From Enterococcus phage nattely: a stretch of 64,000 bases of DNA. A program made the translations under genes and the position numbers. Under the pieces are notes generated by a model that made no database searches, was not told the DNA's origin, and saw only the letters and a list, made by a program, of their open reading frames with translations. Below are positions 4,625 through 50,500 of this stretch, in pieces; position 1 is the first letter of the stretch; every line of letters begins with the position of its first letter. The stretch is taken from the sequence record MT119360.1. One strand, written 5' to 3'.

Positions 4625-6451
4625 ATGGAATTCACAGAGAAAAATTTGTTTAACCCAGGAAAAAATTCGTTTGTTAAGGATGTATTAGAACAAAATGGAG
4701 TTAATCCAGAAATGTTTTTAAATGGAAAAAATTATGAAGATGAAATCGTAAGTCGTCCAAATTTGTATTTTAACATGTTTAAAGCTGTAAATTTAGTTAA
4801 TAAACATGTGGCAACTAATTCTTCAATTGGAATTTTAGTTGATGATGATGCTGATGGAATGACTTCAGCTTCTGCCATGGCGCGCGTGTTATTTAAGATG
4901 GGTCACCATGGAGCTAAATTCATTTTACACGATGAGAAAGGACATGGACTCCATGGAGAAGTTGAAAAAATCATTGAACAGAAAATTGATTTTTTAATTG
5001 TGCCAGACGCGGGCTCAAATGATTTTGAAGATCAAAAATCTGTGTTAGAAGCTGGGATCGACTTATTAATTCTTGATCACCATGATATGGATAATGAAAG
5101 ACCAATTTTAGAATTGGAAGCATTATATGATGGTTATGTATTAGTAAATAATCAATTATCTTATAATATCAAAGGTGTTAATAAAAATTTAGTTGGTGCA
5201 GGAATGGTGTATAAATTTGCACAAGCCGCTGATGAAGAATTTGAAACAGATAAATTTTCGAAAGATATTGTTGATTTAGTTGCGGTTGGACAAATTGGAG
5301 ATTCTAGTGACGTGTCCGATCTTGAAGTTCAATTAATTGTGCGAGAAGGATTGGATAATTTAAAAAATCCACTATTAGTTGAAGCTTTAAAAAATCGTAT
5401 TGTAAAAGGTCAAAAAATTGCTCCAATTAATATGTCGTTTGACATTATTCCATATATTAATGCAGTTACGCGTGTTGGTAAAAAAGAAGAGAAAATTGAA
5501 TTAATAAAAGGATTAATTGGTTTTTGGCCAGCGGATGAAACTGTAATTATTCAAAAGAGAAGAAAAAATAAATTAACGAAAAAATTCGAAATTCGTGAAG
5601 AACCATGGACTCACTATGGAATCTTAATGGATAATTTAACAAAAATAAAAGCTCGTCAAAACAAAGAAATTGACAAAGTTCTCAAAAAAATTGAGGATCC
5701 TTATAATGAAAACATTGTAATAGCGGCCCTCAATGAAGATGAGATTGAATATCGGTCCATTACCGGTCTCATTGCTAACAAATTGGTTTCTCAATATAAT
5801 AAACCGGCTCTTGTATTAATTTCTGAAAATAATGGAACGAAATTTAGTGGTTCAGCTCGTGGACATGAAAAAACTGTTTCTTCATTTAGGCAATGGTGTT
5901 TAAACACAGAATTATTTGAATTAGCACAAGGTCACGACAATGCATTTGGTGTTATTATTGATGATTTAAAATTAGAAAAATTAATGGAGAATAGTGCTTT
6001 AGAAACTGTAGTAAATGAAGTGACATACGAAGTTAATAAAATCTATGAAAATGAAACAAACATTGAGGAAATTAAAATGATCAATGATAACGCATGGATT
6101 TTTGGTGGCTCCATGGCGGCACCCAAATTCGGATATAAAAACTTAGTGATTGGACGTAATTGTGTATCACAAAGAGGTTCTGTTGTAACATTCTTCGACC
6201 ATGGTCTAGAATTTATTATGTATAAACAACCAGCTGGTTTAGTTGATTCATTTTTAGAAAAAATGGGATTTGAACAAAAATTAGTTGTGAACCTTGTCGG
6301 ACACGCAAGTAGAAATGAATGGAATGGTAGAGTAAAAGAACAAGTTGTTTTAGATGATTTTGAAATGATGACATTAGCAGAAAGTGGAATTGAAGATAAG
6401 GCACCAACTTTCGATCCTAACTTTGATGACGATGGAAATTTAGTTTTTTAA
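4625..6451 (+). CDS. DHH-family phosphoesterase, RecJ-like ssDNA exonuclease
   Basis: DHH motifs DDDADGMTSA, LDHHD, GHDNAFG; ATG at 4625 preferred over the TTG at 4622. Confidence 0.65.
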   Translation: MEFTEKNLFNPGKNSFVKDVLEQNGVNPEMFLNGKNYEDEIVSRPNLYFNMFKAVNLVNKHVATNSSIGILVDDDADGMTSASAMARVLFKMGHHGAKFILHDEKGHGLHGEVEKIIEQKIDFLIVPDAGSNDFEDQKSVLEAGIDLLILDHHDMDNERPILELEALYDGYVLVNNQLSYNIKGVNKNLVGAGMVYKFAQAADEEFETDKFSKDIVDLVAVGQIGDSSDVSDLEVQLIVREGLDNLKNPLLVEALKNRIVKGQKIAPINMSFDIIPYINAVTRVGKKEEKIELIKGLIGFWPADETVIIQKRRKNKLTKKFEIREEPWTHYGILMDNLTKIKARQNKEIDKVLKKIEDPYNENIVIAALNEDEIEYRSITGLIANKLVSQYNKPALVLISENNGTKFSGSARGHEKTVSSFRQWCLNTELFELAQGHDNAFGVIIDDLKLEKLMENSALETVVNEVTYEVNKIYENETNIEEIKMINDNAWIFGGSMAAPKFGYKNLVIGRNCVSQRGSVVTFFDHGLEFIMYKQPAGLVDSFLEKMGFEQKLVVNLVGHASRNEWNGRVKEQVVLDDFEMMTLAESGIEDKAPTFDPNFDDDGNLVF

Positions 6452-6467
6452 TAAAAATGTGGAGAAT

Positions 6468-6520
6468 GTTGTTTACATTCTCCTTTTTTATGATATAATA
6501 TAAATATAAATAAAAAAAAA
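6468..6520 (+). promoter_or_regulatory. terminator hairpin fused to sigma-A promoter
   Basis: hairpin ggagaatgttgtttacattctcc plus T-run; TTTACA inside the hairpin; TATAAT downstream. Confidence 0.55.
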
Positions 6521-6546
6521 AAGAAAAAAGAAAGTAGGAATTTATT

Positions 6547-7155
6547 ATGGCAAAAGTAAAATATTCAAAATATGATGTATATTCATTCTTAGATGACAAA
6601 CAGGTTGAAATCACTGATAAAAAATTGAAACCAATTCAAGATGATATTAAAAAATTAAAAGAAAATTATTTAGTAGAAAAATTTCCAAAAGAACAAATTG
6701 AAAAAATTAAAGTAGCACTAATTAATTATGTAGAAGCAACGCGTGACGTTCAATTTGATTATTCAACATATGCATCAAAAGTATATGATTCGTCTTCAGT
6801 TCTTGTAAATTTATTCAATACAGCTAAAGGCAGCAACCGCGCATTAGAAGATCAAATTATGCTTGATATTACAAGCACAGTTGATTGGTCCGATTGTCCA
6901 GATTTAGAACAATTAAAAAGTGTTGAGCGAACGACTCGGAGCGAAATTCGTGAAGAATTTCAAAAATTAGAAGCGATGGTAAAAAGATGTAAAGATGGAG
7001 CACAAGCAGTTTTACAATTACAAAAATTAGGATTCGATACTTCATCAATTAAATCAACATCGGGCGACACGTCAGTATTGGTATTAAATTTAAATAATGA
7101 TTTACTAGGTTTGCCTGAAGAAAATTCTGAAGTCGTAGAAAATTCTCAATTTTAA
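6547..7155 (+). CDS. hypothetical protein
   Basis: ORF with RBS AAGTAGGAA. Confidence 0.5.
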   Translation: MAKVKYSKYDVYSFLDDKQVEITDKKLKPIQDDIKKLKENYLVEKFPKEQIEKIKVALINYVEATRDVQFDYSTYASKVYDSSSVLVNLFNTAKGSNRALEDQIMLDITSTVDWSDCPDLEQLKSVERTTRSEIREEFQKLEAMVKRCKDGAQAVLQLQKLGFDTSSIKSTSGDTSVLVLNLNNDLLGLPEENSEVVENSQF

Positions 7156-7168
7156 TGGAGGTTCTACA

Positions 7169-7555
7169 ATGATTGAAAATAATAAAATTGAAGATAGTAA
7201 AGTTGAGAAAATAGTAGATTTAATTGAATCATTATTAATTGTTAGTGAAATTAATGAAGAAACAGAAGTGTGGATTGAAACACTAACTCCTTCGCATGGA
7301 CAATGTCACTTACCGGTTACTGGTCTTTCCATGGACGGTGAAAATGATCTCTTCTTACTGTTGGATATTGATAAAGACCATGGAGTGAAAGTTCCACAAC
7401 TGCTTAAACATTTACAAAAATATATTGATGAGAATGAAGTAGAAGAATTATGGTATTGGAGTGGAATTAACGAACCTTTTACAGTTGATTCATATTATAT
7501 TATGGAAGATAACACTTTAGTTTTTAGTGATTATAATGGTGAACGTGATGAATAG
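7169..7555 (+). CDS. acidic hypothetical protein
   Basis: ORF with GGAGG RBS. Confidence 0.5.
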   Translation: MIENNKIEDSKVEKIVDLIESLLIVSEINEETEVWIETLTPSHGQCHLPVTGLSMDGENDLFLLLDIDKDHGVKVPQLLKHLQKYIDENEVEELWYWSGINEPFTVDSYYIMEDNTLVFSDYNGERDE

Positions 7556-8018
7556 AAGAATTGAAGGTCCATTAAAACATATTATTGATGATAAAAATAG
7601 GTATCTTGCACGAGATGTAAATTTTGTTCCAAAATTAAAAGATGAATTAATTAAGACATTTAGGCTGCTTTGTGATGGTGATGATAATGTTAGATTAGTT
7701 TATGATACTCATTTTAAACAATCATATATTTTTCATGCTCGAAAAGATGGAAATTTAATTTTTCCAATATTAGGTTTTTCTTTACAACAAAATGAAGATG
7801 AAATATGTGAAACCATTTTCGACCCATATAAAATGAGATATAACTATAACGTGTATATTATTGTTCATATTTTTGGTGAAGAAATATATCAATTGTCTAT
7901 TGACCAAATATCAGTTTTTCATGATGAAAAAGGTGAAGAAATACCTATAGAGATTAAATTTTTAAATGGTAACACAAGAGAATTTAGTCGTTACAACAAA
8001 CTATTAGATTTATTTTAA
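7548..8018 (+). CDS. hypothetical protein
   Basis: ORF; internal ATG at 7548 preferred over the track start 7527. Confidence 0.4.
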   Translation: MNRRIEGPLKHIIDDKNRYLARDVNFVPKLKDELIKTFRLLCDGDDNVRLVYDTHFKQSYIFHARKDGNLIFPILGFSLQQNEDEICETIFDPYKMRYNYNVYIIVHIFGEEIYQLSIDQISVFHDEKGEEIPIEIKFLNGNTREFSRYNKLLDLF

Positions 8019-8021
8019 AAA

Positions 8022-8080
8022 ATGAGACTTTGTAAAAAAACTATTTACAAAGTCTCATTTTTTATGTATAATAAATATAT
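8022..8080 (+). promoter_or_regulatory. terminator hairpin with embedded -35, then -10
   Basis: hairpin tgagactttgtaaaaaaactatttacaaagtctca plus T6; -35 TTTACA in the 3-prime arm; TATAAT in gtataataaatat. Confidence 0.6.
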
Positions 8081-8308
8081 AATAAATAAACGAATAGAGG
8101 TAAGAAAATGCTTAATGAACAATCACCTTTAACTGTAGAAGAAGAAGAAATTGAATTACAAATTCAATCAATAGAGATGATTATGGAAATTGAAGAAATA
8201 ATTGATAAAAATGGAAAAATTTATGGAAAAACTTTATAAAAACTGTTTACAAAACATAAAAGTTAATGTATAATAAATATATAATAAATAAACAAAAGAA
8301 AGTAGGAA

Positions 8309-8509
8309 ATGACAATGATGAAAAATTTAGAAAAATTCAGTTTAAACGCAGGAGATAAAGTATTAATTGATGGTGATGTATATTTAATCTTAGATAGAAA
8401 AATTACTCCATACAACATTGGAATGTATCAATTACAAGATCCAACTGATGAAAAACATAGATTTTGGCAAGCTGCTCAAATCACAGAACAAATTTCAACA
8501 AAATTATAA
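8309..8509 (+). CDS. hypothetical protein
   Basis: ORF after the promoter at about 8250 with RBS AAGTAGGAA. Confidence 0.5.
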   Translation: MTMMKNLEKFSLNAGDKVLIDGDVYLILDRKITPYNIGMYQLQDPTDEKHRFWQAAQITEQISTKL

Positions 8510-8681
8510 AAAAAAAGAAAGAGGTAAATAAAAATGAAAAAACAATACCAATCTAAAGAACAAGAAATTTTAAACCAAGCTAAAACAGTATCAAAATTAG
8601 AAAGCTTGAGTGCAAAAGAAAAAATTGCAGTATTAAAATTTTTAGAAAAGAAACATGTAAACATGGGAGGAAATTGGTAAC

Positions 8682-8882
8682 ATGAAAGAAAAATTAGAAT
8701 CAGGAATGGCAGTAATGGTTAATGTGGACGATGGTCAAACTTTAATCAAGGATAAAATTGGAATTATTACAGAAGTTTTTCCTCAAAAATATACAGCATT
8801 AACTGGTTTTCATTATGAAGTTTCACTTTTAAATTGTGGAACTGTTGTTAGATGTAATAAAAAAGAAATTAAGAAAATGTAG
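8682..8882 (+). CDS. hypothetical protein
   Basis: ORF with GGAGG RBS. Confidence 0.45.
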   Translation: MKEKLESGMAVMVNVDDGQTLIKDKIGIITEVFPQKYTALTGFHYEVSLLNCGTVVRCNKKEIKKM

Positions 8883-8953
8883 ACCGATAGGTTTACATTT
8901 TCACTATTTATTGATATAATATATTTATAAAATAAATTAAATTGGAGGTATTT

Positions 8954-9469
8954 ATGAATTTAGTTATTGAGGGTCCTAAAGCAAGTGGAAAAAGCACAAT
9001 TTCTCACCACTTTATTGAAAAATATTTAACGACATATGACCATATGAGCTCCGATAGCGATAACTCATTAAAAGGACATTTAAATTTATTAAAAGGCAAA
9101 AAAGGTGAATCATTAAATCATGTAATAGATCGTTTTTCAGTTGGGGAAATGATTTATCCTAATTTATATGGCCGTGAAGGAAAATTAAATTTAGATGAGT
9201 TTAATGTCACAATGAGTTCAGAAAACACATTATACGTTATTCTTTATTCTTCGTCTGATCAATTATTATTTGATCGAATTGAATGGAGAGGAAGAAACAC
9301 TGATGATGAAGATCATGATTTAGTGTCAAAATCAAATTTTGCATTTAAAATGATTGGTGAATCATTGAAATATCGTGAAAATGTATTATTATTTGATGTT
9401 GCAAAAGTAGGATTAAAAGAAATTATTAAAATAATTGAAGATAAATTGGAGGAGTTAAACAGATGTTAA
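8954..9469 (+). CDS. P-loop deoxynucleoside/deoxynucleotide kinase
   Basis: Walker A IEGPKASGKST; DRFSVGE resembles the dNK ERS/DR motif; ATG at 8954 with GGAGGT RBS. Confidence 0.5.
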   Translation: MNLVIEGPKASGKSTISHHFIEKYLTTYDHMSSDSDNSLKGHLNLLKGKKGESLNHVIDRFSVGEMIYPNLYGREGKLNLDEFNVTMSSENTLYVILYSSSDQLLFDRIEWRGRNTDDEDHDLVSKSNFAFKMIGESLKYRENVLLFDVAKVGLKEIIKIIEDKLEELNRC

Positions 9470-10308
9470 AATTTAAAAATGTAAATGATGCATGGATTCA
9501 TTTGGCAAAAAATGTCGTTTATAAAGGTGATGTTGTTGGAAATACAAAAGAATTAACAAATGTATCATTCCAAATTGAAAATCCATTAGATAACATTGTA
9601 AAAAGCCGTCACAATTTTTCATTAACATATTATTTAGGTGAAACTGTATGGTATGGTGCTGGTAAAGACGATGTTGAATTTATTAGTAAATTTGGCCGTA
9701 TTTGGAATCATTTAACAGATAATGGAATTTATAACAATAGTGCTTATGGTTATATCTTAAAAAATAAGCATGGTTTTGACCAAATCGAAAAAGCAATTGA
9801 ATTATTACGTGGAGATCAATATAGCCGACGAGCAGTGTTAAATATTAATATTCCACGGCGTGATGTTATTGAAACAAAAGATGAAATGTGCACAATTGCA
9901 TTACAGTTTTTAATTCGCGATGGAAAATTAAATATGACTGGAATTATGCGTTCAAATGATTTATGGACTGGTACTCCATATGATATTTTTTATTTCACAA
10001 CATTACAACGATATGTTGCATATAAATTAAATATTGATATGGGAACATATACGCATTTTGCAACTTCTTTACATTGTTATTTACGTGATGAAGAAAAATT
10101 AATTAAATCTTTTGAAAATGATGCAAATAATATTTATGCTGGTATCGATATTAATGGAATGCGTTTATTATTACAAGCTGAAGAATTATATTATACAACA
10201 CGTAAAGAAGAAAATGCAAAATTAGAATTAGTTAAATTATGTAAAGAACGTAATATTATTAAAGGAAAAGAAGTTGAAAAAACTATTGAAAAACTATCTG
10301 CTATTTAG
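9463..10308 (+). CDS. thymidylate-synthase-fold pyrimidine hydroxymethylase, best match to T4 gp42 dCMP hydroxymethylase
   Basis: SRRAVLNI / EMCTIALQFLIRDGKLN / MRSND block aligns to T4 gp42 DSRRGIMIY / FMCTNTVQYLIRDKKIN / MRSND; Asp in TPYDIF aligns with gp42 Asp179, where ThyA has Asn177. Confidence 0.7.
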   Translation: MLKFKNVNDAWIHLAKNVVYKGDVVGNTKELTNVSFQIENPLDNIVKSRHNFSLTYYLGETVWYGAGKDDVEFISKFGRIWNHLTDNGIYNNSAYGYILKNKHGFDQIEKAIELLRGDQYSRRAVLNINIPRRDVIETKDEMCTIALQFLIRDGKLNMTGIMRSNDLWTGTPYDIFYFTTLQRYVAYKLNIDMGTYTHFATSLHCYLRDEEKLIKSFENDANNIYAGIDINGMRLLLQAEELYYTTRKEENAKLELVKLCKERNIIKGKEVEKTIEKLSAI

Positions 10309-10336
10309 CAGATAGTTTGTATAAAGGAGAAGAGTT

Positions 10337-10753
10337 ATGAAAATTAAAATTAATATGTTTAGTGATGAAGAAATTTATCAACCAAAAAGAGCACATTATA
10401 ATGACGCAGGAGCCGATGTTCGCTCAACAGAAGAAATGTTAATTTGGCCAGGAGAAACTCGAAAAATTCCACTAGGTTTTGGATTAGAATTACCAGATGG
10501 ATATATGGGAGTTATGATGAGTCGTTCAGGATTAGCTTCAAAAGGATTAGTTTCACAAAATGCACCGGTTGATTCTGGATATAAAGGTCAAGTTCACGCA
10601 ATTATGACAAATGTATCAGATGAAGTTATTAAAATTGAAAAATATGATAGAATCGCACAATTAGTAATTATTCCAGTTATGGTTGCAGATTTTGTCACAG
10701 AAACAGGTAGTGAAAGAACCAGTGATGGTTTTGGAAGTACAGGTTTAAAATAG
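10337..10753 (+). CDS. dut: dUTP diphosphatase (trimeric dUTPase)
   Basis: motifs AGADV, MSRSGL, VDSGYKG, DGFGSTG in canonical order; 138 aa. Confidence 0.85.
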   Translation: MKIKINMFSDEEIYQPKRAHYNDAGADVRSTEEMLIWPGETRKIPLGFGLELPDGYMGVMMSRSGLASKGLVSQNAPVDSGYKGQVHAIMTNVSDEVIKIEKYDRIAQLVIIPVMVADFVTETGSERTSDGFGSTGLK

Positions 10754-10762
10754 GAGGATTAT

Positions 10763-11821
10763 ATGGAAATTTTATTATTGAATGTCGCAAATAACATTAC
10801 GGATTTTCGAACAGTATCAAGTGGGGAAACAGTTTATCTAAAACAAATGTTAGAACAGTTAGGCCATGGAGTTACAATTGCTTCAAATAAGAATGGTGAA
10901 TATGCGGTTGCATTTGAGGAAATTGAGGATATTAACAATTTTGACAAAGTAGTTGTTTTACCTGCTTCACTGAACTTTTTCGGTGGTGTAGAAAACCCGA
11001 CAATTATTAAAAATTATAAATTATTAGCAAAATATAATGGAACTATTAATATTTTGCAAACTGACGCACGTTTGCCATTTAAGCAGTTGTGGCCAGCAAT
11101 TGAGAAGCGGGGATGGGGATATAAAAAAGAAGAAGTTTGGATTAATGCCCCAATTAAAGTAATTGCACAATCAAAAAATTTAGATGAAGTTAAAACACAA
11201 TATGAAAAAGAAATTTTCAATAACATTGAGTTTACACATTTTCCAATTGAGCGTTATGCTGGCATTGTGGCGCTAATGAATCCAATTGATGAAGTCGAAG
11301 AAAAAGAACATGATTTAGTTTATTATGGTTCATTCCGTGGAGGCAATCGTGCTGCTAAAATGGCAGAATTTTTATGTGGAAACATTGTAGAAAAATTAGA
11401 TGTCCACGTATTTGGAACAATTCGAGAAAAACAATTAGCTAAAAGTAGCGATGGTCCATTTCCTTCGTTTGGTAAAAAGATGAAAATGAATGAAATTAGA
11501 CAAGAGGTTAGCAAAAGTTTCTCAACTTTAATTATTGGTGAAAAATTTTATAATAATGCAATGTTGACAGTGAGGGTTTGGGAAACATTAAGTAGCGACG
11601 CAGTAGTTCTCATTGACAACGATTTTGACTCTTACCATAATTTATTTCCTAATTCGCCATGGCGGTATGTTGAAAAAGAAGAAGATCTTATCGAAGTAGT
11701 AAAATCTCTTAAAGATGATGAAAATAAGAGAAAATTAGCGATTCAAGAGCAAAAAGAAGTGTTAGAAAAAATGATTGATTCTTCTCAATGGTTAAGAGAT
11801 TTTGAAAATATTTTAGCTTAA
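10763..11821 (+). CDS. bgt: DNA beta-glucosyltransferase (T4 BGT homolog, GT-B fold)
   Basis: full-length collinear similarity to T4 beta-glucosyltransferase: MEILLLNVANNITDFRTVSSGETVYL vs MKIAIINMGNNVINFKTVPSSETIYL, NFFGG, TDARLPFKQLWP vs TDIRLPFSQSWP, YGSFRGGNRAAKMAEFL vs YGGSFRSGQRESKMVEFL, LRVWETLSSDAVVLIDNDFD vs LRVWETMASDAVMLIDEEFD; 352 aa vs 351 aa. Confidence 0.85.
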   Translation: MEILLLNVANNITDFRTVSSGETVYLKQMLEQLGHGVTIASNKNGEYAVAFEEIEDINNFDKVVVLPASLNFFGGVENPTIIKNYKLLAKYNGTINILQTDARLPFKQLWPAIEKRGWGYKKEEVWINAPIKVIAQSKNLDEVKTQYEKEIFNNIEFTHFPIERYAGIVALMNPIDEVEEKEHDLVYYGSFRGGNRAAKMAEFLCGNIVEKLDVHVFGTIREKQLAKSSDGPFPSFGKKMKMNEIRQEVSKSFSTLIIGEKFYNNAMLTVRVWETLSSDAVVLIDNDFDSYHNLFPNSPWRYVEKEEDLIEVVKSLKDDENKRKLAIQEQKEVLEKMIDSSQWLRDFENILA

Positions 11822-11860
11822 CGGTTTACGTTAAGCTTTTTTTATGATATAATATAACTA
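11822..11860 (+). promoter_or_regulatory. terminator hairpin fused to promoter
   Basis: gcttaacggtttacgttaagc plus T7; TTTACG -35 in the loop; TATAAT. Confidence 0.55.
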
Positions 11861-11892
11861 TAAATAAATTAGAAAGAAATGGAGAGAAATTT

Positions 11893-12417
11893 ATGACGGT
11901 TCAGTTTAAAGCGAAAGGACATGAAGATAACATTATTCACTTATATTCAGATGGTGGTTGTCGGTCAACTGCTAAAAAAGGTGAAACTATAAAAGAAACA
12001 GATAAAAGTGCTTATGCATTCTTCTTAAAACAAGGTGGAAATGAAAAATTAGATGGGCAAGCAAGTTATGGTAAAACAAATAATAATCAAGAAATTATGG
12101 GATTATTAATGGGCTTACGCGCTATTAAACGCCCAGAATTTCCAGTTGTTGCATATTTAGATTCAGCTTATGTTGTTAACTGTTTACAAGCTGGCTGGTG
12201 GAAGAAGTGGAAAGCTAATGGATGGACGAAAAAAGGTGGATTAGCAAATGCTAAAGAATGGAAAGAATTAATTGAAGAATTAGAACGTTTTCCATTTTTT
12301 AGAATTGAAAAAGTTAAAGGACACAGTGGCTTTGCAGATTATAATGATTTAGTTGATAAACACTTAAATAAATTAATGGATGAATTACCTGAAATTGGAA
12401 AGGGAAATGTTTTATGA
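11893..12417 (+). CDS. rnh: ribonuclease H (RNase HI-like)
   Basis: YSDGGC N-terminal motif and C-terminal GHSGFADYNDLVDKH; 174 aa. Confidence 0.75.
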   Translation: MTVQFKAKGHEDNIIHLYSDGGCRSTAKKGETIKETDKSAYAFFLKQGGNEKLDGQASYGKTNNNQEIMGLLMGLRAIKRPEFPVVAYLDSAYVVNCLQAGWWKKWKANGWTKKGGLANAKEWKELIEELERFPFFRIEKVKGHSGFADYNDLVDKHLNKLMDELPEIGKGNVL

Positions 12418-13376
12418 TATATTATGGAGAGCCATATTTTGAACTATTTTCATATGAGGCGACTGATAAAGCAAGAAATGACACTTGTAAAATATTAAAC
12501 TCCATGGGGTATTCACCTTTAAAATTATCTTGTTTTTCAGACGTGAACATTGAGAAAGCTGATGAAGAATTAGCTAACATTGAGGAAAATGACATAATTC
12601 TCTTACAATATCCAACTTACAGTGGAGCAGATTATGAAAAGAGATTAATTGAAATTTCTCATAAGAAAAAAGCAAAAATCTGTGCAATTGTTCACGACTT
12701 AGAATCAATAAGATTCTATGGAAATGATAGTGACATTGAGATTTTGAATGGTTTCGATATTATATCTCTTCCCTCCATGGAGATGTATAAAAAACTCTTA
12801 AAACAAGGACTAAAAACAAAAGTAAAGATACAGTTAATTTGGGATTTTCTCGCCATGGATAATCAACAATGGTATGATACAAATTCGGACATTGTCTTTG
12901 CTGGAAATTTAACAATGGAAAAGAGTAAATGGATAATGGATGTAGATTTTCCTATGTTGGTGTATGGCGACAATATAAATAATTTAATTTTTAATGATGA
13001 TGTAAAATATTGTGGTAAAAAGAATGATTTGGAATTAGTAAAAGAAATTGGTGGACAAATTGGATTATTATGGGAAGAAGGATTATATAAAGATTATTTA
13101 AAATATAATTTATCGTTTAAGCCTTCTTTATATCTTGCAGCAAATTGTCCGATTATTGTTCCAGAAAAAACCCATATTGGAAATATTGTAAAAACATACA
13201 AAATAGGCGTAACTGTTAAAGATATTAAAAGACAAACAATGTTGGATGCTGTTATTAAATTAAAAGATAATTTAAACTTTTATCAAGAACGTGTTTCAAC
13301 ATTTGGAGAAACAATTAGAAATGGGCAAAATATGAAAACGTTAGTTGAAAGTATGGTGAGAGAAATTGAAAATTGA
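12414..13376 (+). CDS. putative GT-B glycosyltransferase (C-terminal GT4-like nucleotide-sugar binding region)
   Basis: DIVFAGNLTMEKSKW and LYLAANCPIIVPEKTHIGNIV resemble GT-B donor-binding motifs; start overlaps the rnh stop (ATGA). Confidence 0.4.
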   Translation: MIYYGEPYFELFSYEATDKARNDTCKILNSMGYSPLKLSCFSDVNIEKADEELANIEENDIILLQYPTYSGADYEKRLIEISHKKKAKICAIVHDLESIRFYGNDSDIEILNGFDIISLPSMEMYKKLLKQGLKTKVKIQLIWDFLAMDNQQWYDTNSDIVFAGNLTMEKSKWIMDVDFPMLVYGDNINNLIFNDDVKYCGKKNDLELVKEIGGQIGLLWEEGLYKDYLKYNLSFKPSLYLAANCPIIVPEKTHIGNIVKTYKIGVTVKDIKRQTMLDAVIKLKDNLNFYQERVSTFGETIRNGQNMKTLVESMVREIEN

Positions 13377-13623
13377 AATGTATGTTTTTGATAAAGTTGA
13401 GGTCGATTATGAAAATTTCACTAATACTGAATATGGAGAACAATGCAAAATTTATCGATTCTCGCTAGTTGGGTTAAATTCAGAAATAAAATCAAAAATT
13501 TATTCAATTAAATTTAGAAAATTATTAAAATATCAATGGTATGTTGATTTACAAATTTGGATTATGAAAATGAGAAAGAAAACATTTGTGCAAAATGTAT
13601 TAGGAAGGGAATACTATGGATGA
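13366..13623 (+). CDS. hypothetical protein
   Basis: ORF overlapping the upstream stop. Confidence 0.4.
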   Translation: MKIEMYVFDKVEVDYENFTNTEYGEQCKIYRFSLVGLNSEIKSKIYSIKFRKLLKYQWYVDLQIWIMKMRKKTFVQNVLGREYYG

Positions 13624-13807
13624 AAAAACTAGACTAATTAATAGGCAAGAAGAATTATCAGCACGATTAGAAGGTTTAAAATTTGCGGAAAAATGGATAA
13701 AAATTTTTGGACCTCTAAATGAAGATAATGTTCAAAAAGAAATTAAAACAACTATGGAGTTAATGGATGATAATTTAGCTAAATTGGAGGAAATTATATA
13801 TGGTTGA
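13616..13807 (+). CDS. hypothetical protein
   Basis: ORF, coupled to upstream gene. Confidence 0.4.
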   Translation: MDEKTRLINRQEELSARLEGLKFAEKWIKIFGPLNEDNVQKEIKTTMELMDDNLAKLEEIIYG

Positions 13808-13908
13808 AATATTAATTGATTTTTTATTGGTTTTTCCAGCGATAATTCTTATTATTTTATTTGCGGCTATCTTAGCAATTATTAGTGAAATTTAAAGGAG
13901 AATGAAAA

Positions 13909-14517
13909 ATGGCAAAATTTACATTTATGTATGGAACTATGAAAAGCGGAAAAAGTATGGAGTTAATTAAAACTTATACAAATTATTTAGTAAAAGATCA
14001 AAAACCATTGGTGTTAAAAAGTGCAATTGATACACGTGACTCCAATACAGTTGCTACACGACTAGGCTCTGCAATTACATGTCAGCTATTAGGACAAAAT
14101 CAAAATATTGCAGATTTTTTACAACAAGATGGTCGTAATAATCCTCCTGTTATTTTGATTGATGAAGCACAATTTTTAACAAAATCACAAGTTATCGAAT
14201 GTGGTGTTCTAGTTGATACGCAAAATATTGATGTAATATGCTTTGGTTTGAAAACTGATTTTACTAATCATTTATTCGAAGGAAGTAAAGCTTTAATTGA
14301 AGAAGCTGATAAATTAGTGGAAATTAAAACATTATGCGCTTTTTGTAATAAAAAAGCAACCCATAATTTATTAACTGAATTAAGAGAAGATGGTTATCGT
14401 TATGCTGTTGATTCAGAAAATGTTGATGGAAATATTGTGATTGGTGATGAAGACTTTTTCCAATGCTGCAGAAAACATTATTATTTTTATGGAACTCAAA
14501 CAAGGAAAGTGCAATAA
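13909..14517 (+). CDS. tdk: thymidine kinase
   Basis: P-loop YGTMKSGKS; C-terminal zinc cysteines CAFC...CCRKHY; 202 aa. Confidence 0.85.
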   Translation: MAKFTFMYGTMKSGKSMELIKTYTNYLVKDQKPLVLKSAIDTRDSNTVATRLGSAITCQLLGQNQNIADFLQQDGRNNPPVILIDEAQFLTKSQVIECGVLVDTQNIDVICFGLKTDFTNHLFEGSKALIEEADKLVEIKTLCAFCNKKATHNLLTELREDGYRYAVDSENVDGNIVIGDEDFFQCCRKHYYFYGTQTRKVQ

Positions 14518-14518
14518 T

Positions 14519-14761
14519 ATGAAAATAGAAAAAGATAAATTACAAAATATTGTTAAAAAATTAGAATATGAAGTTGAGTTTAATTCTCCAATTCCAGGAA
14601 TAATCAATAATGAAAATATTGTTATTGATTGGGAAGATATAATGGAAGATAGCGAAGAAGATTTATGTGAAATTTGTGGTTGTGAACATATTGATTCGTG
14701 GGAAGCAGGCGCATGTTGGTCTTCACACAACGATCCTGATTATGACCCATTCGACATTTAG
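14519..14761 (+). CDS. small Cys-rich acidic protein
   Basis: ATG immediately after the tdk stop; CEICGCEH...ACW cluster; the track ORF 14441-14761 extends spuriously into tdk. Confidence 0.45.
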   Translation: MKIEKDKLQNIVKKLEYEVEFNSPIPGIINNENIVIDWEDIMEDSEEDLCEICGCEHIDSWEAGACWSSHNDPDYDPFDI

Positions 14762-22019: not shown

Positions 22020-22241
22020 ATGACATTTGATGAAGCATTTGCAACAGTTTCTAAAAATCGTAATGTATATATGGCATTACCAACGTGGAAAGATGATGTA
22101 AAAATTTTCTGTCAATTTCCAGATGAAAAAAGCAAAATGACACATAAATATTTATATGTGGATTCGCGTTTTGGTCGCGTACCATGGTTACCGACCCAAG
22201 TTGAATTATTTAGTGATAAATGGAAGGTGGCAGCAATCTAA
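22020..22241 (+). CDS. hypothetical protein
   Basis: ORF after the promoter at about 21965. Confidence 0.45.
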   Translation: MTFDEAFATVSKNRNVYMALPTWKDDVKIFCQFPDEKSKMTHKYLYVDSRFGRVPWLPTQVELFSDKWKVAAI

Positions 22242-22942
22242 TGGAAAGAAAATTTGAAAAAGTAAGTGGATATGAAGATGTAAATATCCCATTAAGAGCG
22301 ACTCGTTTTTCGGCCGGTTACGATTTTGAAGCGGCGGAAGATATTACAATTCCTTCGTTGGTGATTGGAATTGACCAATACACAGAAAATATCAAACGAA
22401 AAATTGATGCAACAGATGATGTATCTATCACTGAAGATCAATTTGAAAAACTTAATAATATTAATAGTGAATTTGAAGATAATTCAATTTACACTCAAGC
22501 TGATGAAAAAAATTATTTGGACGTATTAACAATTATGAATGATATTTTAGATGAAGATGTGGATGCTGATACTGTTTTAGACCATTTGAATCAATTTAAA
22601 AATACATTCAAACCAACTTTAGTTCCAACTGGTATTAAAGCAAAAATGCCAAGTGATGAAATGTTATTATTATATAATCGTTCTTCAAATCCATTAAAAC
22701 GTTTCTTGTTTTTAGCAAATGGTGTTGGAGTTATTGACAGTGATTATTATAATAATGAAGGAAATGAAGGTCACATTATGTTCCAATTTATTAATTTAGG
22801 TCCCACACCGATCACTATTAAAAAAGGTGAACGAATTGGCCAAGGAATTTTCCAAAAGTTCTTATTAACGACAGATGTTGAAATTACACAAGACGTTGAA
22901 CGAACTGGTGGTTTTGGTTCGACTAATAAGGAGGAACAATAA
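22241..22942 (+). CDS. dUTPase/dCTP-deaminase superfamily protein with a roughly 100-aa insertion; candidate dCTP/dUTP pyrophosphatase
   Basis: dUTPase motifs in order: SAGYDF (I), GVIDSDY (III), RTGGFGSTN (V), with a long acidic insert between I and III. Confidence 0.55.
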   Translation: MERKFEKVSGYEDVNIPLRATRFSAGYDFEAAEDITIPSLVIGIDQYTENIKRKIDATDDVSITEDQFEKLNNINSEFEDNSIYTQADEKNYLDVLTIMNDILDEDVDADTVLDHLNQFKNTFKPTLVPTGIKAKMPSDEMLLLYNRSSNPLKRFLFLANGVGVIDSDYYNNEGNEGHIMFQFINLGPTPITIKKGERIGQGIFQKFLLTTDVEITQDVERTGGFGSTNKEEQ

Positions 22943-23235
22943 TGGAACGTAAAGTTATTCATGTGTTTTATGACAAAAATCATACAACAGACTTAGCTGT
23001 CTTGAATGTTATTGAAGAAATTGAAAGCAAATTTGATTCAAAATTAAATTTAATTATTCAACCATTAGAAGTTGAGCAAGATATTGTTATGACAAATGCA
23101 TATGGTATTCCTTTATCTTTTGAAGGTGTTTATATTATTGTATTAGATAAAGATAATAATCAAGAGCAATGTATTCATGCAAAAACAAAAATTCAAGCTT
23201 TATCTAAATTGAAAGGAACGAGCGTTTATAAATGA
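22942..23235 (+). CDS. hypothetical protein
   Basis: coupled ORF. Confidence 0.45.
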   Translation: MERKVIHVFYDKNHTTDLAVLNVIEEIESKFDSKLNLIIQPLEVEQDIVMTNAYGIPLSFEGVYIIVLDKDNNQEQCIHAKTKIQALSKLKGTSVYK

Positions 23236-23858
23236 AATTGACTAAGCCAATATTTGTTCTTGCTGGAAAAACACTTTCTGGTAAGACAACATTATTAAAT
23301 TATTTAATTGATGAATGCCATATGAATAATCATAAAAAAGTAGAAAAAGTTGTAACAATCACGACACGCCCCAAACGCCCGGGCGAAATGGATGGCAAAG
23401 ATTATTACTTTATTACTAATGATCAATTTGATAAAATGGTAAAAGAAAATAAGATTATTGCTCCACGGGAATACCATGTTGCGACAGGAGAAGTGTGGAA
23501 ATATGGAATTGAAAAAGGTTTTGAAAATGAATATGAAATTCCAGTTGTTGTAACAGATGTTCAAGGAATTAAAGATTTGAAAAAAGAATTTGGAGCACAT
23601 AATGTAATTGTATTTTATAAAGAAATTTCAACTATTTTACAATTAAAAAGAGCGATGAGTCGCAAAGAAAATAGTCGTGACGAACAAATTCGTCGCATTA
23701 TCTCAGATGATGAAGATTTTAAACATATTTGGGAATGGGCAGATTATATTCTAGATGATGAAGAAAGTAATATGCCTGATGATGCTGGTTTTATGTTAAA
23801 TCAAGTGGATTATGAAATTGACCAATTCAATGATCCTGACCGTGACATTTATATCTAA
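23232..23858 (+). CDS. P-loop nucleotide kinase (candidate dNMP kinase)
   Basis: Walker A VLAGKTLSGKTTL; guanylate/dNMP-kinase-like size of 208 aa. Confidence 0.5.
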   Translation: MKLTKPIFVLAGKTLSGKTTLLNYLIDECHMNNHKKVEKVVTITTRPKRPGEMDGKDYYFITNDQFDKMVKENKIIAPREYHVATGEVWKYGIEKGFENEYEIPVVVTDVQGIKDLKKEFGAHNVIVFYKEISTILQLKRAMSRKENSRDEQIRRIISDDEDFKHIWEWADYILDDEESNMPDDAGFMLNQVDYEIDQFNDPDRDIYI

Positions 23859-37172: not shown

Positions 37173-37216
37173 AAAAAATAGGAGCCAATCGGTTAAGATT
37201 GACTCCTATTTTTATT
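37171..37216. terminator. bidirectional rho-independent terminator between the convergent early and late blocks
   Basis: aggagccaatcggttaagattgactcct hairpin flanked by an A-run upstream and a T-run downstream. Confidence 0.65.
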
Positions 37217-38192
37217 ATATCCCAAATGCTTCAAAGAGAATTTCTTCACTTCTGTCCATTAGGTAAGATTCAGTAGTTGATACATCCTCATGATGAGCGA
37301 TTAATTTTAATACTTTTAAATCTAATTGGTCTTTGCCTAATTCTTTTAACACATGATGAGTTCCGTTAGAATAATTATCTAATGATGAATGGCGGAAACA
37401 GTGTGGATTAATATCTACAACTTCTCCAGTTTTCAATTCTAAAACTTTTCTGAAATATAGACAAAAATTATATAATGATTCATATGATCTTGCTCTAATA
37501 TTTTCGCCTTTTCCAGCAACCCATAAAGAGTCAATATTATCATTTCCGCGTTGATCAAACCATAATTTTGCTATTTCTCTAGTGCGATCAAAATATAAAA
37601 GTTGGAATTTTTTACCACGTTTACCAATAACTTCATTAGTCATTTTCGATTCTAAGAAATTTTGTTTTTTAACTTGTAGAATTTCATTACGACGAGCAGC
37701 ACTATCATATGATAAAGATAAATATAAAGCCATTTCATATTTTTCTTCTTCTAATAAATGTTCTAAAATAATATCAATTTGCTCATCAGTTAGAAAAACA
37801 ATATCTCTAACTTTTTCACCTTGAATTCCTTTAATTGCACGCATAACATTTTTATCATAATCATATTCATCTTCATCATCTTCAGCAAAAGCTAATAAAT
37901 TTCGAATTGAACTTTGAAAACGATTAATTCTAGCTGCGCTCGTGCCCATTTCTTGCATTGATAAGAAAAATGTTCGAAACATGCGTTTCTTAAGGTCTAA
38001 TATTGATTTATTTCCTGCATTTTGAGCTATCCAACAGAAAAAGCCTTTAATGTCGGCAGTATATTGGTAAATAGTTTTTTCAGCTCGACCTTTACTTTTA
38101 AGTTCTAAAATATAATCTTCTAATAACATTTTGTTTTCCGCATTAACTTCTTCCCATATTTTTTCATCAAATAAATTATTGCGTTTTGCCAT
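37215..38192 (-). CDS. tyrosine recombinase (XerC/D-like integrase-family)
   Basis: C-terminal catalytic region HCFRHSS...LIAHHEDVSTTESYL with the R..H..R/H..Y arrangement; 325 aa. Confidence 0.7.
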   Translation of the reverse strand: MAKRNNLFDEKIWEEVNAENKMLLEDYILELKSKGRAEKTIYQYTADIKGFFCWIAQNAGNKSILDLKKRMFRTFFLSMQEMGTSAARINRFQSSIRNLLAFAEDDEDEYDYDKNVMRAIKGIQGEKVRDIVFLTDEQIDIILEHLLEEEKYEMALYLSLSYDSAARRNEILQVKKQNFLESKMTNEVIGKRGKKFQLLYFDRTREIAKLWFDQRGNDNIDSLWVAGKGENIRARSYESLYNFCLYFRKVLELKTGEVVDINPHCFRHSSLDNYSNGTHHVLKELGKDQLDLKVLKLIAHHEDVSTTESYLMDRSEEILFEAFGI

Positions 38193-47529: not shown

Positions 47530-50500
47530 TATCCTAAGTCACCTCTTTCTTGTCTGTTAATTTCTTCAGCTAATTTTTCACCAAAAGTTTGAACGTCCAT
47601 ATCGTTGTAGATATAAACATTATCGACAGCAACTGTTACAGCTCTTGTTCCAACTGCATTTTGTGTCGCAACTTGTGGAGTTGCTGTTGCTATACTTCTA
47701 CCTTTGTTACTAATTGAGCCAAAAGTATTCATTGTGCTATTAACACCATTACCAATCGCAGAAGACGCTTTTTGAATTGCGTTAATGCTGCTAGCGATCA
47801 TTCCACCAAATCCATTTGTAGCTTTCATAGTTGCTGCTTCATAAGGATTAGTATCATGTGTTATACTAATTGTTCCTTCGCTCTTGAATGGATTAAATTT
47901 ATCGATAATGTGTCCAGCTCTATCCCAAGCAGACTGAATCTTATTAACAATACTATCAAATACTCGTGAAACAGTGTTCCATAAAGATTCGAAAGTACCT
48001 TTAATAGATTCGATTGTACCACTTAACGAACTAATAACACCTCTAATACCACCAATTGCTCCATCAATAATGCCTCTAATACCGTTCCAAACATTTGAAG
48101 TTACATTTCGAATACCATTCCAAATATTTTCAACAGTGTTTTTCACACCATTAAAAACGTTCGAAGCTGTATTTTTAATGCCGTTCCAAATTCCAGAAAG
48201 TGTGTTTTTAATACCGTTCCAAATATTAGAAGATACATTTTTAACGTTGTTCCAAATGTTAGAAATTGTTTGCGAAATACTGTTAAATATATTTGAAGCT
48301 GCATTTTTAATACTTTCCCAAATAGGTTGTAACGTATTTTTAATTGCATTCCAAACATTTGAACTAACTTCTTTTATTTTGTTCCACGCATCTGTGATAA
48401 CTTTTTTAACATTATTGAAAACATCGGACGCTGTTTTCTTAATTGAGTTCCAAATGTTGCTCAAAGTTGCTTTTAATCCATTCCAAATCTCTTCGGTCCG
48501 CGATTTTGTTGACTCCCATAATCCGGAAAAGAACTCTTTAATCGGTTCCCAAATGGCTTTAGCAGTTTCTTTAATTGTGTTCCAAACAGTTGATAGAACA
48601 TAACCAATATCAGTCCATGCTTGATTCCATTTTTCTGTTATTGTATCCCAAATATTTCCTAAGAATTCTTTAATTGGTGTCCAAATTTCATTAACTTTTT
48701 CTTTAAATCCGTCCCAGACAGCACCAACAGTCTCTTTGATTGTATTCCAAACATTTGTCCATGTTTCTACAATACCATCCCAGACCTTCATTACAGTCTC
48801 ACCAATAGCGTCCCAAATTTTCTCGGCCGCCGCTTTTAGTCCTTCCCATAAGAGAATGATTGCCGTAATAGCGACTTGAAGTGGTAAAGTGATAATTTGC
48901 CATAATGCATTCCAAATTTTATGGATTGTTTCTTTAAAACCTTCCCAAAAATCTGCAGCTTTATCTTTAAAACCTTCCCAGATTCCTGTTACTTTTTCAA
49001 TTACTCCATTCCATAAATTAGAAAACCATTCACTAAAACCGTCCCAAACCTTCTTGATCGGCTCAGTCATTTTACCCCAAACTTCTGCCGCTTTTTCTTT
49101 GATTTTTTCCCAAGATTTTACTAAACCTTCAGAAATTTCAGACCATTTTTTACTGAACCAATCTCCCAGTCCGTCCCAGGCTTTTTTGATCGCCTCTCCG
49201 GCTTGTTCGAATTTTTCTCCAGCCCAGTCTTTAATTTTATCCCATGTTTGGCCTAACCATTTTGTGAATTTATCCCATGTTTTTTGCACCCATTTAACAG
49301 TATCGTCCCAATTTAAAATTGCTACAATAACTGCACCAACTGCCGTGACGATGCCGGCTATAATTGCAATTAATGGTGCTAATCCAATCCCTAGCGCTGT
49401 TGCTGCCATACTTAATGCTCCAAATACGGCGACGGCACCGGCAATCAAGGCGGCTAAAGGGGCAATAACTGTGATTGCAATACCAATAGATGTTATAAAT
49501 TTCTTCATACCTGGACTTAATTTATCAAAACGATCTCCAAGAGATTTTAAATTTTTTACGAGTGGTAGTAAAGCTTCAGCTAAAGCCTCGCCAATCGGTG
49601 CAAGACTAGTTTTCATGTCATTAAAAGAACCTTTAAGTTCGTCAATACTTGAAACTGAATCTTTTTTCATTTTTTCAGCTGCGCCACCGGTGTCTTCAAA
49701 CATTGTTTTAACACCTTCTCCGCTAAGAGCGGTTTGACTAAGTGCTTCTAATACGCCAACACCAGCATCTTCACCCATTGTTCCGAAAATCTGACTTGCT
49801 TTTGCTAATTTATTTGTTTTTCCTTCGGTGGCCATAATTTCTCCACCTAAAACACGGAATAAATCTAACACTGAAGATGATCCATCTTTATAGGATTGGA
49901 ATGCTTTTTGTGAAGTTTGGTCCATATTTTCCATTGCTTTTTCTAATGTTCCATCACTTGCACGAATTTGAAATTCTTTCATAAGGTCATTCATTTTGTC
50001 CAAATTATATCCGCCAGCATCTAAACCAGCTTTTAGAATTTGGAACATATCTTCAGCGGAAACACCCATGTCGTGGAACAATGGTGCGTATTCAGCTAAG
50101 TTATCGCCTAACTCATGGGTTTTATCCATACCATTTTGAGCACCGACAGTGATCATGTCCATTGCCTCTTCTGCAGTTAACCCATAACTTACCATTAATG
50201 CATTTGCACCACGCATGGTTTCGTCCATATCCATGCCAAATACTTTTTCTAACGATGCTGCTTGACCAGTAATTTTTTCTAAGTCTTGGTTATTTAATCC
50301 TTGTAAATTTGATTTAACAATCCGAATTGCTTCAGTTGCCTCTTCCATTGAAGGAGAAAAACCATCTCTAGCTAAATTACGCGCGATTTCTTGTAATTTT
50401 TTTGCTTCTTCGCTAGTTAACCCAAATGCGGCTTGTAATTTTCTTTGACTACCTTCAACTTGGCCTTGTGCTTCTAAAGCTGCTCCACCAAGTTCTTTCA

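Follow-up and report, generated by a model that had tools for sequence, protein, structure and literature searches.

A T4-family DNA beta-glucosyltransferase gene beside a predicted dCMP hydroxymethylase gene in an Enterococcus phage of the VPE25 group

Glucosylated 5-hydroxymethylcytosine (5hmC) protects phage DNA against most restriction enzymes and exposes it to modification-dependent ones. The best-matched described enzyme is the DNA beta-glucosyltransferase (BGT) of phage T4, for which the titles of PDB entry 1nzd (D100A) and of Lariviere 2003 give Asp100 as the catalytic base. For phages of enterococci, Duerkop et al. 2016 (mBio, PMC4999554) reported that the b-gt product of VPE25 and VFW is about 40% identical to T4 BGT, that the cytosines of these phages are not converted by bisulfite, and that their DNA resists EcoRI and MspI and is sensitive to PvuRts1I. 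The same paper sketched a route to 5hmC through formation of 5-methylcytosine (5mC) followed by hydroxylation, and raised the possibility that a second, 'nucleotide sugar synthetase-like' open reading frame (ORF) modifies the glycosylated DNA further. Here we analyse a 64,000-nucleotide stretch of Enterococcus phage nattely (record MT119360.1), referred to below as the window, and its ORF 10763-11821. Our data make it very probable that this ORF encodes a functional T4-family DNA beta-glucosyltransferase of a lytic siphophage of the VPE25/vipetofem group, acting on 5hmC made by a thymidylate-synthase homolog encoded upstream.

The beta-glucosyltransferase homolog and its phage group

In the six-frame ORF list, the gene runs from ATG to stop without interruption. 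The initial annotation, made from the DNA letters, had proposed a product collinear with T4 BGT throughout and of nearly the same length, and both points were borne out: the protein has 352 residues against 351 in T4, and the two align end to end. In a phmmer search of the PDB sequences, window residues 1-347 matched T4 residues 1-345 (E = 8.3e-74), and among all PDB sequences only wild-type T4 BGT (1bgt and related entries) and its D100A mutant 1nzd were matched. BLASTP against T4 BGT NP_049658 (from NC_000866), a comparison that the annotation had itself suggested, returned a significant alignment with 142/343 identities (41%), 63% positives and E = 1e-83. Pfam family PF09198, 'Bacteriophage T4 beta-glucosyltransferase' (T4-Gluco-transf), was matched over profile positions 1-166 of 167 (E = 2e-61) with a score of 207 bits, the gathering cutoff being 27 bits, and PHROG 7922, 'beta-glucosyltransferase', covered residues 1-349 (E = 2e-98); a weaker Pfam match, to Glyco_trans_1_2, fell in the C-terminal part. 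The full-length match thus lies above the curated threshold of the T4 BGT family, which we take to be CAZy family GT63. ORF 10763-11821 is an intact, full-length relative of T4 DNA beta-glucosyltransferase, and the match is far beyond chance.

The motifs that had been picked out by eye were also found. NFFGG occupies N71-G75 within SLNFFGG, the TDxRLPF motif occurs as QTDARLPF and contains D101, and the LRVWET-type motif is present as VRVWETLSSDAVVLID, where T4 BGT has LRVWETMASDAVMLID. The expected YGGSFRxGxR was recovered with a single departure, since one Gly of the T4 sequence YGGSFRSGQR is Tyr in the window protein (YYGSFRGGNR). The T4 sequence on which the earlier reader had relied was essentially right.

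An AlphaFold2 model of the protein, built on an alignment of 36 homologs, reached a mean predicted local distance difference test (pLDDT) value of 93.4 and a predicted template-modelling (pTM) score of 0.89. When this model was compared with the PDB using Foldseek, T4 BGT (1nzd/1qkj) was recovered with template-modelling (TM) scores of 0.93-0.94 and a root-mean-square deviation of 1.8 Å, so that the predicted structure is the two-domain GT-B fold of the T4 family. In contrast, the next-best family, T4 alpha-glucosyltransferase (AGT), scored only 0.57-0.60, and other GT-B enzymes, with WaaG, PimA and Gtf3 among these weaker neighbours, gave TM scores of at most 0.6 at about 12% identity.

The residues on which the T4 enzyme depends are retained as well. 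In a global alignment, T4 positions E22, N70-F-F-G-G74, T99-D100, R102-L-P-F105, G188-S189-F-R191, R195, K237, M240, Y261, R269 and E272 are identical in the window protein. Asp101, the counterpart of the catalytic T4 Asp100, is invariant across the 36 homologs, which reach down to 25% identity; N71-G75, G189, R192, K239, Y263, R271 and E274 are likewise invariant, and conservation is at least 90% at E22, S190 and R196. In the T4 BGT structures of Morera and Lariviere, residues S189, R191, R195, R269, E272, Y261 and E22 and the NFFGG loop presumably bind UDP-glucose; the window counterparts of the seven single residues are S190, R192, R196, R271, E274, Y263 and E22. Hence the window protein keeps both the catalytic base and the presumed UDP-glucose residues.

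Comparison with the VPE25 ortholog gave dS = 0.39, dN = 0.009 and an omega (dN/dS) of 0.023, a sign of strong purifying selection. Its Shine-Dalgarno sequence, which overlaps the TAG stop codon (10751-10753) of the preceding dUTPase gene, reads as a strong ribosome-binding site. Taken together, the sequence, the predicted fold, the conserved catalytic base and the other T4 positions checked, and an adjoining gene of dCMP-hydroxymethylase type, described below, support the homology that the initial annotation had put forward.

A megablast search of 50,697 phage records with positions 8900-14600 (5.7 kb) matched only Enterococcus phages. The best match, vB_EfaS_140, was 98.3% identical in nucleotides over 100% of the query; vB_EfKM29, VFW, VPE25 and vipetofem followed at 92-93%, and no record searched was identical to the window. 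The window therefore belongs to an Enterococcus siphophage of the VPE25/VFW/vipetofem/vB_EfaS_140 group. In the matched records the gene at the BGT position is annotated 'b-gt beta glucosyl transferase', and the proteins are 98.0-99.7% identical in the records with a listed identity (vB_EfaS_140, VPE25 and vipetofem). The VPE25 gene order is that of the window: a hypothetical (kinase-like) gene, 'thymidylate synthase', dUTPase, b-gt, RNase HI and 'nucleotide sugar synthetase-like protein', with a thymidine kinase gene further on in the VPE25 record and then DNA polymerase III alpha. The BGT gene of the window is thus the annotated and published b-gt of the VPE25-group phages. Since orthologs 98.6-99.7% identical to the window protein, in VPE25, VFW and vB_EfaS_140, were already annotated as b-gt, and their homology and the modification of the DNA had been published in 2016 (PMC4999554), the novelty that the initial annotation had implied does not stand; the gene and its likely role have been public since that year, and finding the gene again adds nothing new.

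Two further observations concern the phage as a whole. Window ORF 37215-38192 on the minus strand (325 amino acids) lies at the position of the integrase-family recombinase gene of VPE25; an integrase-family ORF has been noted in the VPE25 and VFW phages, which appear obligately lytic (PMC4999554). The ORF stands at the boundary, near 38 kb, at which both the GC skew and the coding strand flip, from early and replication genes on the plus strand to lysis and structural genes on the minus strand.

The hydroxymethylase-type neighbour and the proposed pathway

Two genes upstream of the BGT gene, in the same predicted transcription unit, lies a gene with the signature of a synthase for 5-hydroxymethyl-dCMP (5hmdCMP), a predicted source of the acceptor base of BGT. 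Its product matches Pfam PF00303 (E = 7e-21) and stays below the cutoffs of all six NCBIfam thymidylate-synthase models, the best score being 89.8 bits vs 174.55. Among PDB sequences, its best match is the CMP 5-hydroxymethylase MilA (E = 9e-26); the E values were about 1e-12 with true thymidylate synthases and 4e-8 with T4 dCMP hydroxymethylase. Asp140, Cys143, Asp166 and Asp174 of the window protein align with Asp145, Cys148, Asp171 and Asp179 of T4 gp42, and the Asp residues align with MilA too. Relative to E. coli ThyA, whose sequence was checked only at positions 143, 146, 169 and 177, the window protein has Asp in place of Asn177 and keeps Asp at the Asp169 position. At the Leu143 position it is acidic, like T4 gp42 and MilA, an equivalence that depends on gap placement, being clear in one alignment (A2) and against MilA and ambiguous in another (A1). 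According to Lee et al. 2026 (PMC13326640), Asp at position 177 confers specificity for dCMP, an acidic residue at position 143 marks the hydroxymethylases (the T4-like enzymes and MilA), and the newly found 5-hydroxy-dCMP (5hodCMP) synthases are recognised by Asn at position 169. The window protein thus has the residues of a 5hmdCMP synthase of the T4 gp42 type. Two other assignments were rejected: an ordinary thymidylate synthase (ThyA), because the NCBIfam cutoffs are not reached and the Asn177 position holds Asp, and a 5-hydroxycytosine synthase, because the Asp169 position holds Asp and not Asn.

This signature, being that of a 5hmdCMP synthase rather than of the 5-hydroxycytosine type, points to a T4-style route in which 5hmC would be made at the nucleotide level, before replication, rather than by the hydroxylation of 5mC considered for VPE25 (PMC4999554). 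This link between the BGT unit and a nucleotide-level pathway is part of the modest addition that our analysis makes. The word 'thymidylate' occurs 0 times in PMC4999554, where the homolog goes unmentioned, and in GenBank the gene of the related phages is labelled only 'thymidylate synthase'. Compared with VPE25 (positions 6564-7409 of its locus, L001), the gene is 78.6% identical in nucleotides and 75% in amino acids, with the key residues unchanged; for the genes on either side (kinase, dUTPase, BGT, RNase H and Gtf3-like), nucleotide identity is about 93%. It looks as if this gene alone had been replaced, by mosaic or allelic exchange.

Matches to BGT were found in 123 of the 50,697 phage records, nearly all of them T4-like, so that the earlier statement broadly holds: outside T-even-like phages, BGT homologs are rare. 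Among the matches listed, those outside the T4-like group were seven Enterococcus records, Lactobacillus phage ATCCB and one uncultured phage. When 5.8 billion proteins were searched with the window BGT, 41 clusters were obtained, in which T4-like sequences were about 40-47% identical and a graded metagenomic series ran from 70% down to 51%.

In five backgrounds besides the group of the window, BGT stands beside or near a gene of the thymidylate-synthase family. These are T4 itself (L002); a T4-like contig (L007) with a 46% identical homolog between gp42-like and uvsX genes; two contigs of about 80 kb (L004 and L005) with the VPE25-like order DnaB, primase, RecJ, thymidylate-synthase-like, dUTPase, BGT, RNase H and PolIII alpha; a contig with a different backbone (L008; AAA_24, DUF669, D5 primase, SNF2), where a 47% homolog lies in a block of kinase, thymidylate-synthase-like, BGT and dUTPase genes; and Lactobacillus phage ATCCB (L010, MK504445.1, positions 5167-8222), where a thymidylate-synthase-like gene, a 30% identical BGT homolog and a UDP-galactopyranose mutase gene follow one another. 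The association held in every case examined, and this gives good support for a hydroxymethyl-pyrimidine acceptor. The ATCCB neighbourhood is a hint that a galactofuranose donor may be used, or fed, by part of the BGT family.

Three further genes are found in contigs L004 (7091-7408) and L005 (179-628 and 15738-16820): one like Tad2, between the thymidylate-synthase-like and dUTPase genes, one like Acb2/Tad1, and, close to the replication module, one of glycoside hydrolase family 15. All three are missing at the corresponding places of the window.

The features of the region are collected in Table 1. The genes for the nucleotide kinase, the thymidylate-synthase-family protein, the dUTPase-family protein and BGT follow each other in this order, between a promoter-like site and a hairpin that overlaps the BGT stop codon, which suggests that the four form one transcription unit closed by that hairpin. 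The hairpin has a folding energy of -12.1 kcal/mol (z = -4.5; 0 of 200 shuffles fold as well), and its sequence is identical in VPE25; at the aligned position, L004 and L005 have different inverted repeats, read from the sequence and not from folds. Promoter-like sites in the region are not above the shuffled expectation, with 50 found vs 46.8 expected.

Table 1. Features of the BGT locus and of related genes elsewhere in the window
Position	Strand	Feature	Basis
8873-8902		Weak terminator-like hairpin, followed by the promoter-like site at 8892-8920	Sequence
8892-8920	+	Promoter-like site TTTACA-17-TATAAT with TG, where the four-gene unit would begin	Consensus match only
8954-9469	+	P-loop nucleotide-kinase-like protein, 171 amino acids; candidate hydroxymethyl-dCMP/dNMP kinase	PHROG, Walker A
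9463-10308	+	Thymidylate-synthase-family protein, 281 amino acids; predicted dCMP 5-hydroxymethylase (5hmdCMP synthase)	Pfam, PDB, residue signature
10337-10753	+	Trimeric dUTPase-family protein, 138 amino acids	Pfam dUTPase, E = 9.5e-23
10752-10757	+	Shine-Dalgarno AGGAGG, 5 nucleotides 5' of the BGT ATG	Read from sequence
10763-11821	+	DNA beta-glucosyltransferase homolog, 352 amino acids	Profile, sequence, fold, residue and selection evidence
11815-11844	+	Intrinsic-terminator-like hairpin: 9-bp stem 11815-11837, then seven T 11838-11844	RNA fold
11825-11853	+	Promoter-like site TTTACG-17-TATAAT with TG, ahead of the RNase H and Gtf3-like genes (next unit)	Consensus match only
12414-13376	+	Gtf3/WbbI-like glycosyltransferase, 320 amino acids	PDB Gtf3 matches
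22220-22942	+	Second dUTPase-family protein, 240 amino acids, with extended N-terminal part	Pfam and NCBIfam dUTPase, residues ~130-236
23232-23858	+	Guanylate-kinase-family protein, 208 amino acids; alternative dNMP-kinase candidate (putative role)	Pfam Guanylate_kin, E = 1e-19

The first gene of the unit, for which an upstream TTG at 8942 would give a product of 175 amino acids, encodes a candidate hydroxymethyl-dCMP/dNMP kinase. It has the Walker A sequence GPKASGKST, matches PHROG 761 ('thymidylate kinase') weakly (E = 9.5e-7), and shares 40% identity (E = 5e-33) with the kinase encoded beside the thymidylate-synthase-like and BGT genes of the unrelated contig L008; PDB sequences gave no match and NCBIfam one at the P-loop level only. 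The guanylate-kinase-family protein encoded far downstream scored below the NCBIfam guanylate kinase cutoff. As for the dUTPase-family proteins, the one encoded next to BGT reached 106.6 bits with the NCBIfam dUTP diphosphatase model (cutoff 103) and could, speculatively, also handle dCTP. The other might be a pool-sanitising enzyme linked to the pathway, an equally speculative role. Ahead of its dUTPase part, this second protein has a long acidic stretch that ordinary dUTPases lack. Both were considered as equivalents of the T4 gp56 dCTPase and rejected, as neither has any similarity to gp56, and among ten early ORFs of the window that lack annotation, a scan with Pfam found no dCTPase of the MazG or any other type.

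We propose the following pathway. The thymidylate-synthase homolog would convert dCMP to 5hmdCMP, phage or host kinases would raise this product to the triphosphate, with the two kinase candidates of Table 1 as possible phage contributors, and the phage PolIII-alpha-type replicase would incorporate the hydroxymethylated nucleotide in place of dCMP. After replication, BGT would flip 5hmC out of the duplex; Asp101, as general base, would deprotonate the hydroxymethyl oxygen, which would then attack C1 of UDP-alpha-glucose in an inverting direct displacement to yield beta-glucosyl-5hmC. DNA glucosylated in this manner would be protected from host restriction enzymes, and the Gtf3-like transferase may then add a second sugar. 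Given the conserved residues, the fold and the selection on the gene, a mechanism like that of T4 BGT is the most likely one, its chemistry being carried over by homology. We also infer which sugar is donated, its beta linkage, the assignment of the kinases, a means of excluding dCTP and any second glycosylation. In phages whose enzyme is 98.6% identical to that of the window, modified cytosines have been demonstrated, together with a restriction pattern in keeping with glycosylated 5hmC (PMC4999554).

Several points weigh against this account. Digestion of VPE25 and VFW DNA with PvuRts1I was incomplete (PMC4999554), and our literature searches on the VPE25 group gave no enzyme assay, mass spectrometry or later DNA chemistry. 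The kinase assignment is built on weak matches, and with no homolog of the T4 gp56 dCTPase among the window proteins searched, the exclusion of dCTP from the DNA is unaccounted for. Moreover, the identity to T4 BGT is only 41%, a distance at which donor specificity can shift. The published restriction tests, for their part, do not identify the sugar (PMC4999554), and the ATCCB homolog beside a UDP-galactopyranose mutase gene hints at variable donor chemistry in the family. A BGT-family enzyme might therefore act on 5hmC with another sugar donor in place of UDP-glucose, such as UDP-galactose or UDP-N-acetylglucosamine, and leave a different hexose on the DNA. We nevertheless regard this as improbable: the presumed donor contacts (in T4 numbering, the NFFGG loop, G188/S189/R191/R195, R269/E272, Y261 and M240) are identical in the window protein and mostly invariant or nearly so in the family. 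Besides, the window, unlike the genome of Enterococcus phage Planchet described below, has no sugar-nucleotide synthesis gene, so that on general grounds UDP-glucose would be the simplest donor available.

The acceptor, too, might differ from 5hmC, and 5-hydroxymethyluracil or 5-hydroxycytosine, the latter recently found in RB69/DLP3-type phages, come into question because thymidylate-synthase homologs can make 5-hydroxymethyl-dUMP or 5hodCMP (PMC13326640) and GenBank calls the neighbouring gene only 'thymidylate synthase'. However, Asp at the Asn177 position indicates specificity for cytosine, Asp at the Asp169 position differs from the Asn of the 5hodCMP synthases, and the acidic residue at the Leu143 position is that of T4 gp42 and MilA; furthermore, VPE25 cytosines resist bisulfite, and its DNA is cut by PvuRts1I, which depends on 5hmC or glucosylated 5hmC (PMC4999554). 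We thus consider another base very improbable, more so than another donor. Least credible of all are an acceptor outside DNA, for example a protein or a polymer of the host cell wall, and the reading of the gene product as a non-functional remnant. The GT-B class does serve many acceptors, and WaaG, PimA and Gtf3 are among the weaker structural neighbours of the window protein, yet the model gives a TM score of 0.93 with T4 BGT and at most 0.6 with anything else, and the intact ORF evolves with an omega of 0.023. The gene also lies in an early DNA-metabolism block beside hydroxymethylase, dUTPase and RNase H genes, and the DNA of sister phages is modified (PMC4999554). A T4-family BGT that glucosylates 5hmC in DNA remains by far the best account of the ORF.

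A second glycosyltransferase and the apparent exchange of sugar genes

The next predicted unit contains the gene that VPE25 annotation calls 'nucleotide sugar synthetase-like'. It starts 4 nucleotides before the stop codon of the RNase H gene, so that the two overlap. Its product matched Gtf3 in the PDB (3qkw, E = 8.5e-20 over query residues 20-310; 9hu9, E = 1.7e-19) and also GtfC (4w6q), and is thus homologous over the whole glycosyltransferase domain to the Gtf3/GtfC glucosyltransferases that act in the glycosylation of serine-rich-repeat adhesins. Pfam gave no match; the NCBIfam models of beta-1,6-galactofuranosyltransferase (WbbI type) were matched with E = 1e-37, far below their cutoffs. 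With an omega of 0.057 against VPE25, this gene is under purifying selection as well. An ortholog 48% identical occurs in Enterococcus phage Planchet, and Lactobacillus phages of the Herelleviridae have distant homologs within their replication modules; the VPE25-like metagenomic relatives L004 and L005 lack the gene, and no T-even phage was matched in the search of the phage collection.

The Gtf3-like gene sits in a phage DNA-metabolism block, without the context of a serine-rich adhesin. Gtf3 and WbbI both add a sugar onto one that is already attached. It is plausible that the window enzyme likewise adds a second sugar to glucosyl-5hmC. Such a role for this ORF had already been raised by Duerkop et al., in whose paper WbbI is described as transferring a sugar to an attached sugar (PMC4999554). 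In vB_EfaS_140 (CAJCJZ010000002.1, positions 49072-50032), the gene is matched in two pieces under several annotated features, which suggests that it is frameshifted or split there; the copy in the window is an intact ORF of 320 amino acids.

Planchet (OX422066.1, L009) belongs to the sister genus Denvervirus. Between its dUTPase and RNase H genes (6955-10152) it has no BGT; the slot is taken by genes for a HAD phosphatase, a 543-residue fusion resembling a sugar-1-phosphate nucleotidyltransferase and a kinase, and an unrelated glycosyltransferase of 406 residues. The possibility that this last protein is a diverged BGT was ruled out (BLASTP E = 0.065). The content of the slot suggests that in Planchet the same hydroxymethyl base carries another sugar; DNA modification is not a subject of the Planchet paper. 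With other sugar genes in the BGT slot of Denvervirus, the glycosylation genes behave as an exchangeable cassette.

A broader proposal can be framed from these data, tentatively, and we rate it as somewhat less likely to be right than wrong. BGT might not be peculiar to T-even phages at all: the kinase, hydroxymethylase, dUTPase-family and BGT genes might form a portable cassette, bounded by promoter and terminator, that has moved between unrelated phage lineages, its glycosyltransferase slot being swapped between sister genera, and the Gtf3/WbbI-like enzyme might extend beta-glucosyl-5hmC to a disaccharide-modified cytosine. If true, the latter would be of a kind without prior chemical description in a phage of Gram-positive bacteria. 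Both the Gtf3-like transferase and the swapped slot of the sister genus bear on which sugar or sugars the DNA carries. The effect of glucosylated 5hmC on restriction is relevant to the phage therapy of Enterococcus, for which VPE25-like phages are candidates.

Comparison with known systems

T4 BGT (gene b-gt, NP_049658; structures 1bgt, 1qkj and 1nzd) and the window protein have in common their length, 41% of their residues, the GT-B fold and the catalytic Asp. In both phages a hydroxymethylase gene lies near the BGT gene, with T4 gene 42 immediately upstream of b-gt. Unlike the T4-like myoviruses, the phage of the window is a siphophage of about 86 kb that infects a Gram-positive host and has a PolIII-alpha/DnaB replisome. 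Its hydroxymethylase homolog shares only 26-30% identity with T4 gp42 and is closer to MilA, and, again unlike T4, neither a gp56-type dCTPase nor an alpha-glucosyltransferase was found in it.

The second glycosyltransferase gene near b-gt makes a sugar-on-sugar extension plausible, comparable to that of T2 and T6, in which glucosylation proceeds in two steps and a beta-glucosyl-HMC-alpha-glucosyltransferase yields gentiobiosyl-5hmC. In many T4-like genomes, the region matched by BGT is also annotated with a beta-glucosyl-HMC-alpha-glucosyltransferase gene. The second enzyme of the window differs from that of T2 and T6 in belonging to the Gtf3/WbbI-like family, and its action on DNA is a prediction. 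The nearest system by far is that of VPE25, VFW, vipetofem, vB_EfKM29 and vB_EfaS_140 (Andrewesvirinae), whose b-gt is the same gene in the same gene order; relative to VPE25, the window stands apart by its more divergent thymidylate-synthase-like allele, set among neighbours that have changed far less.

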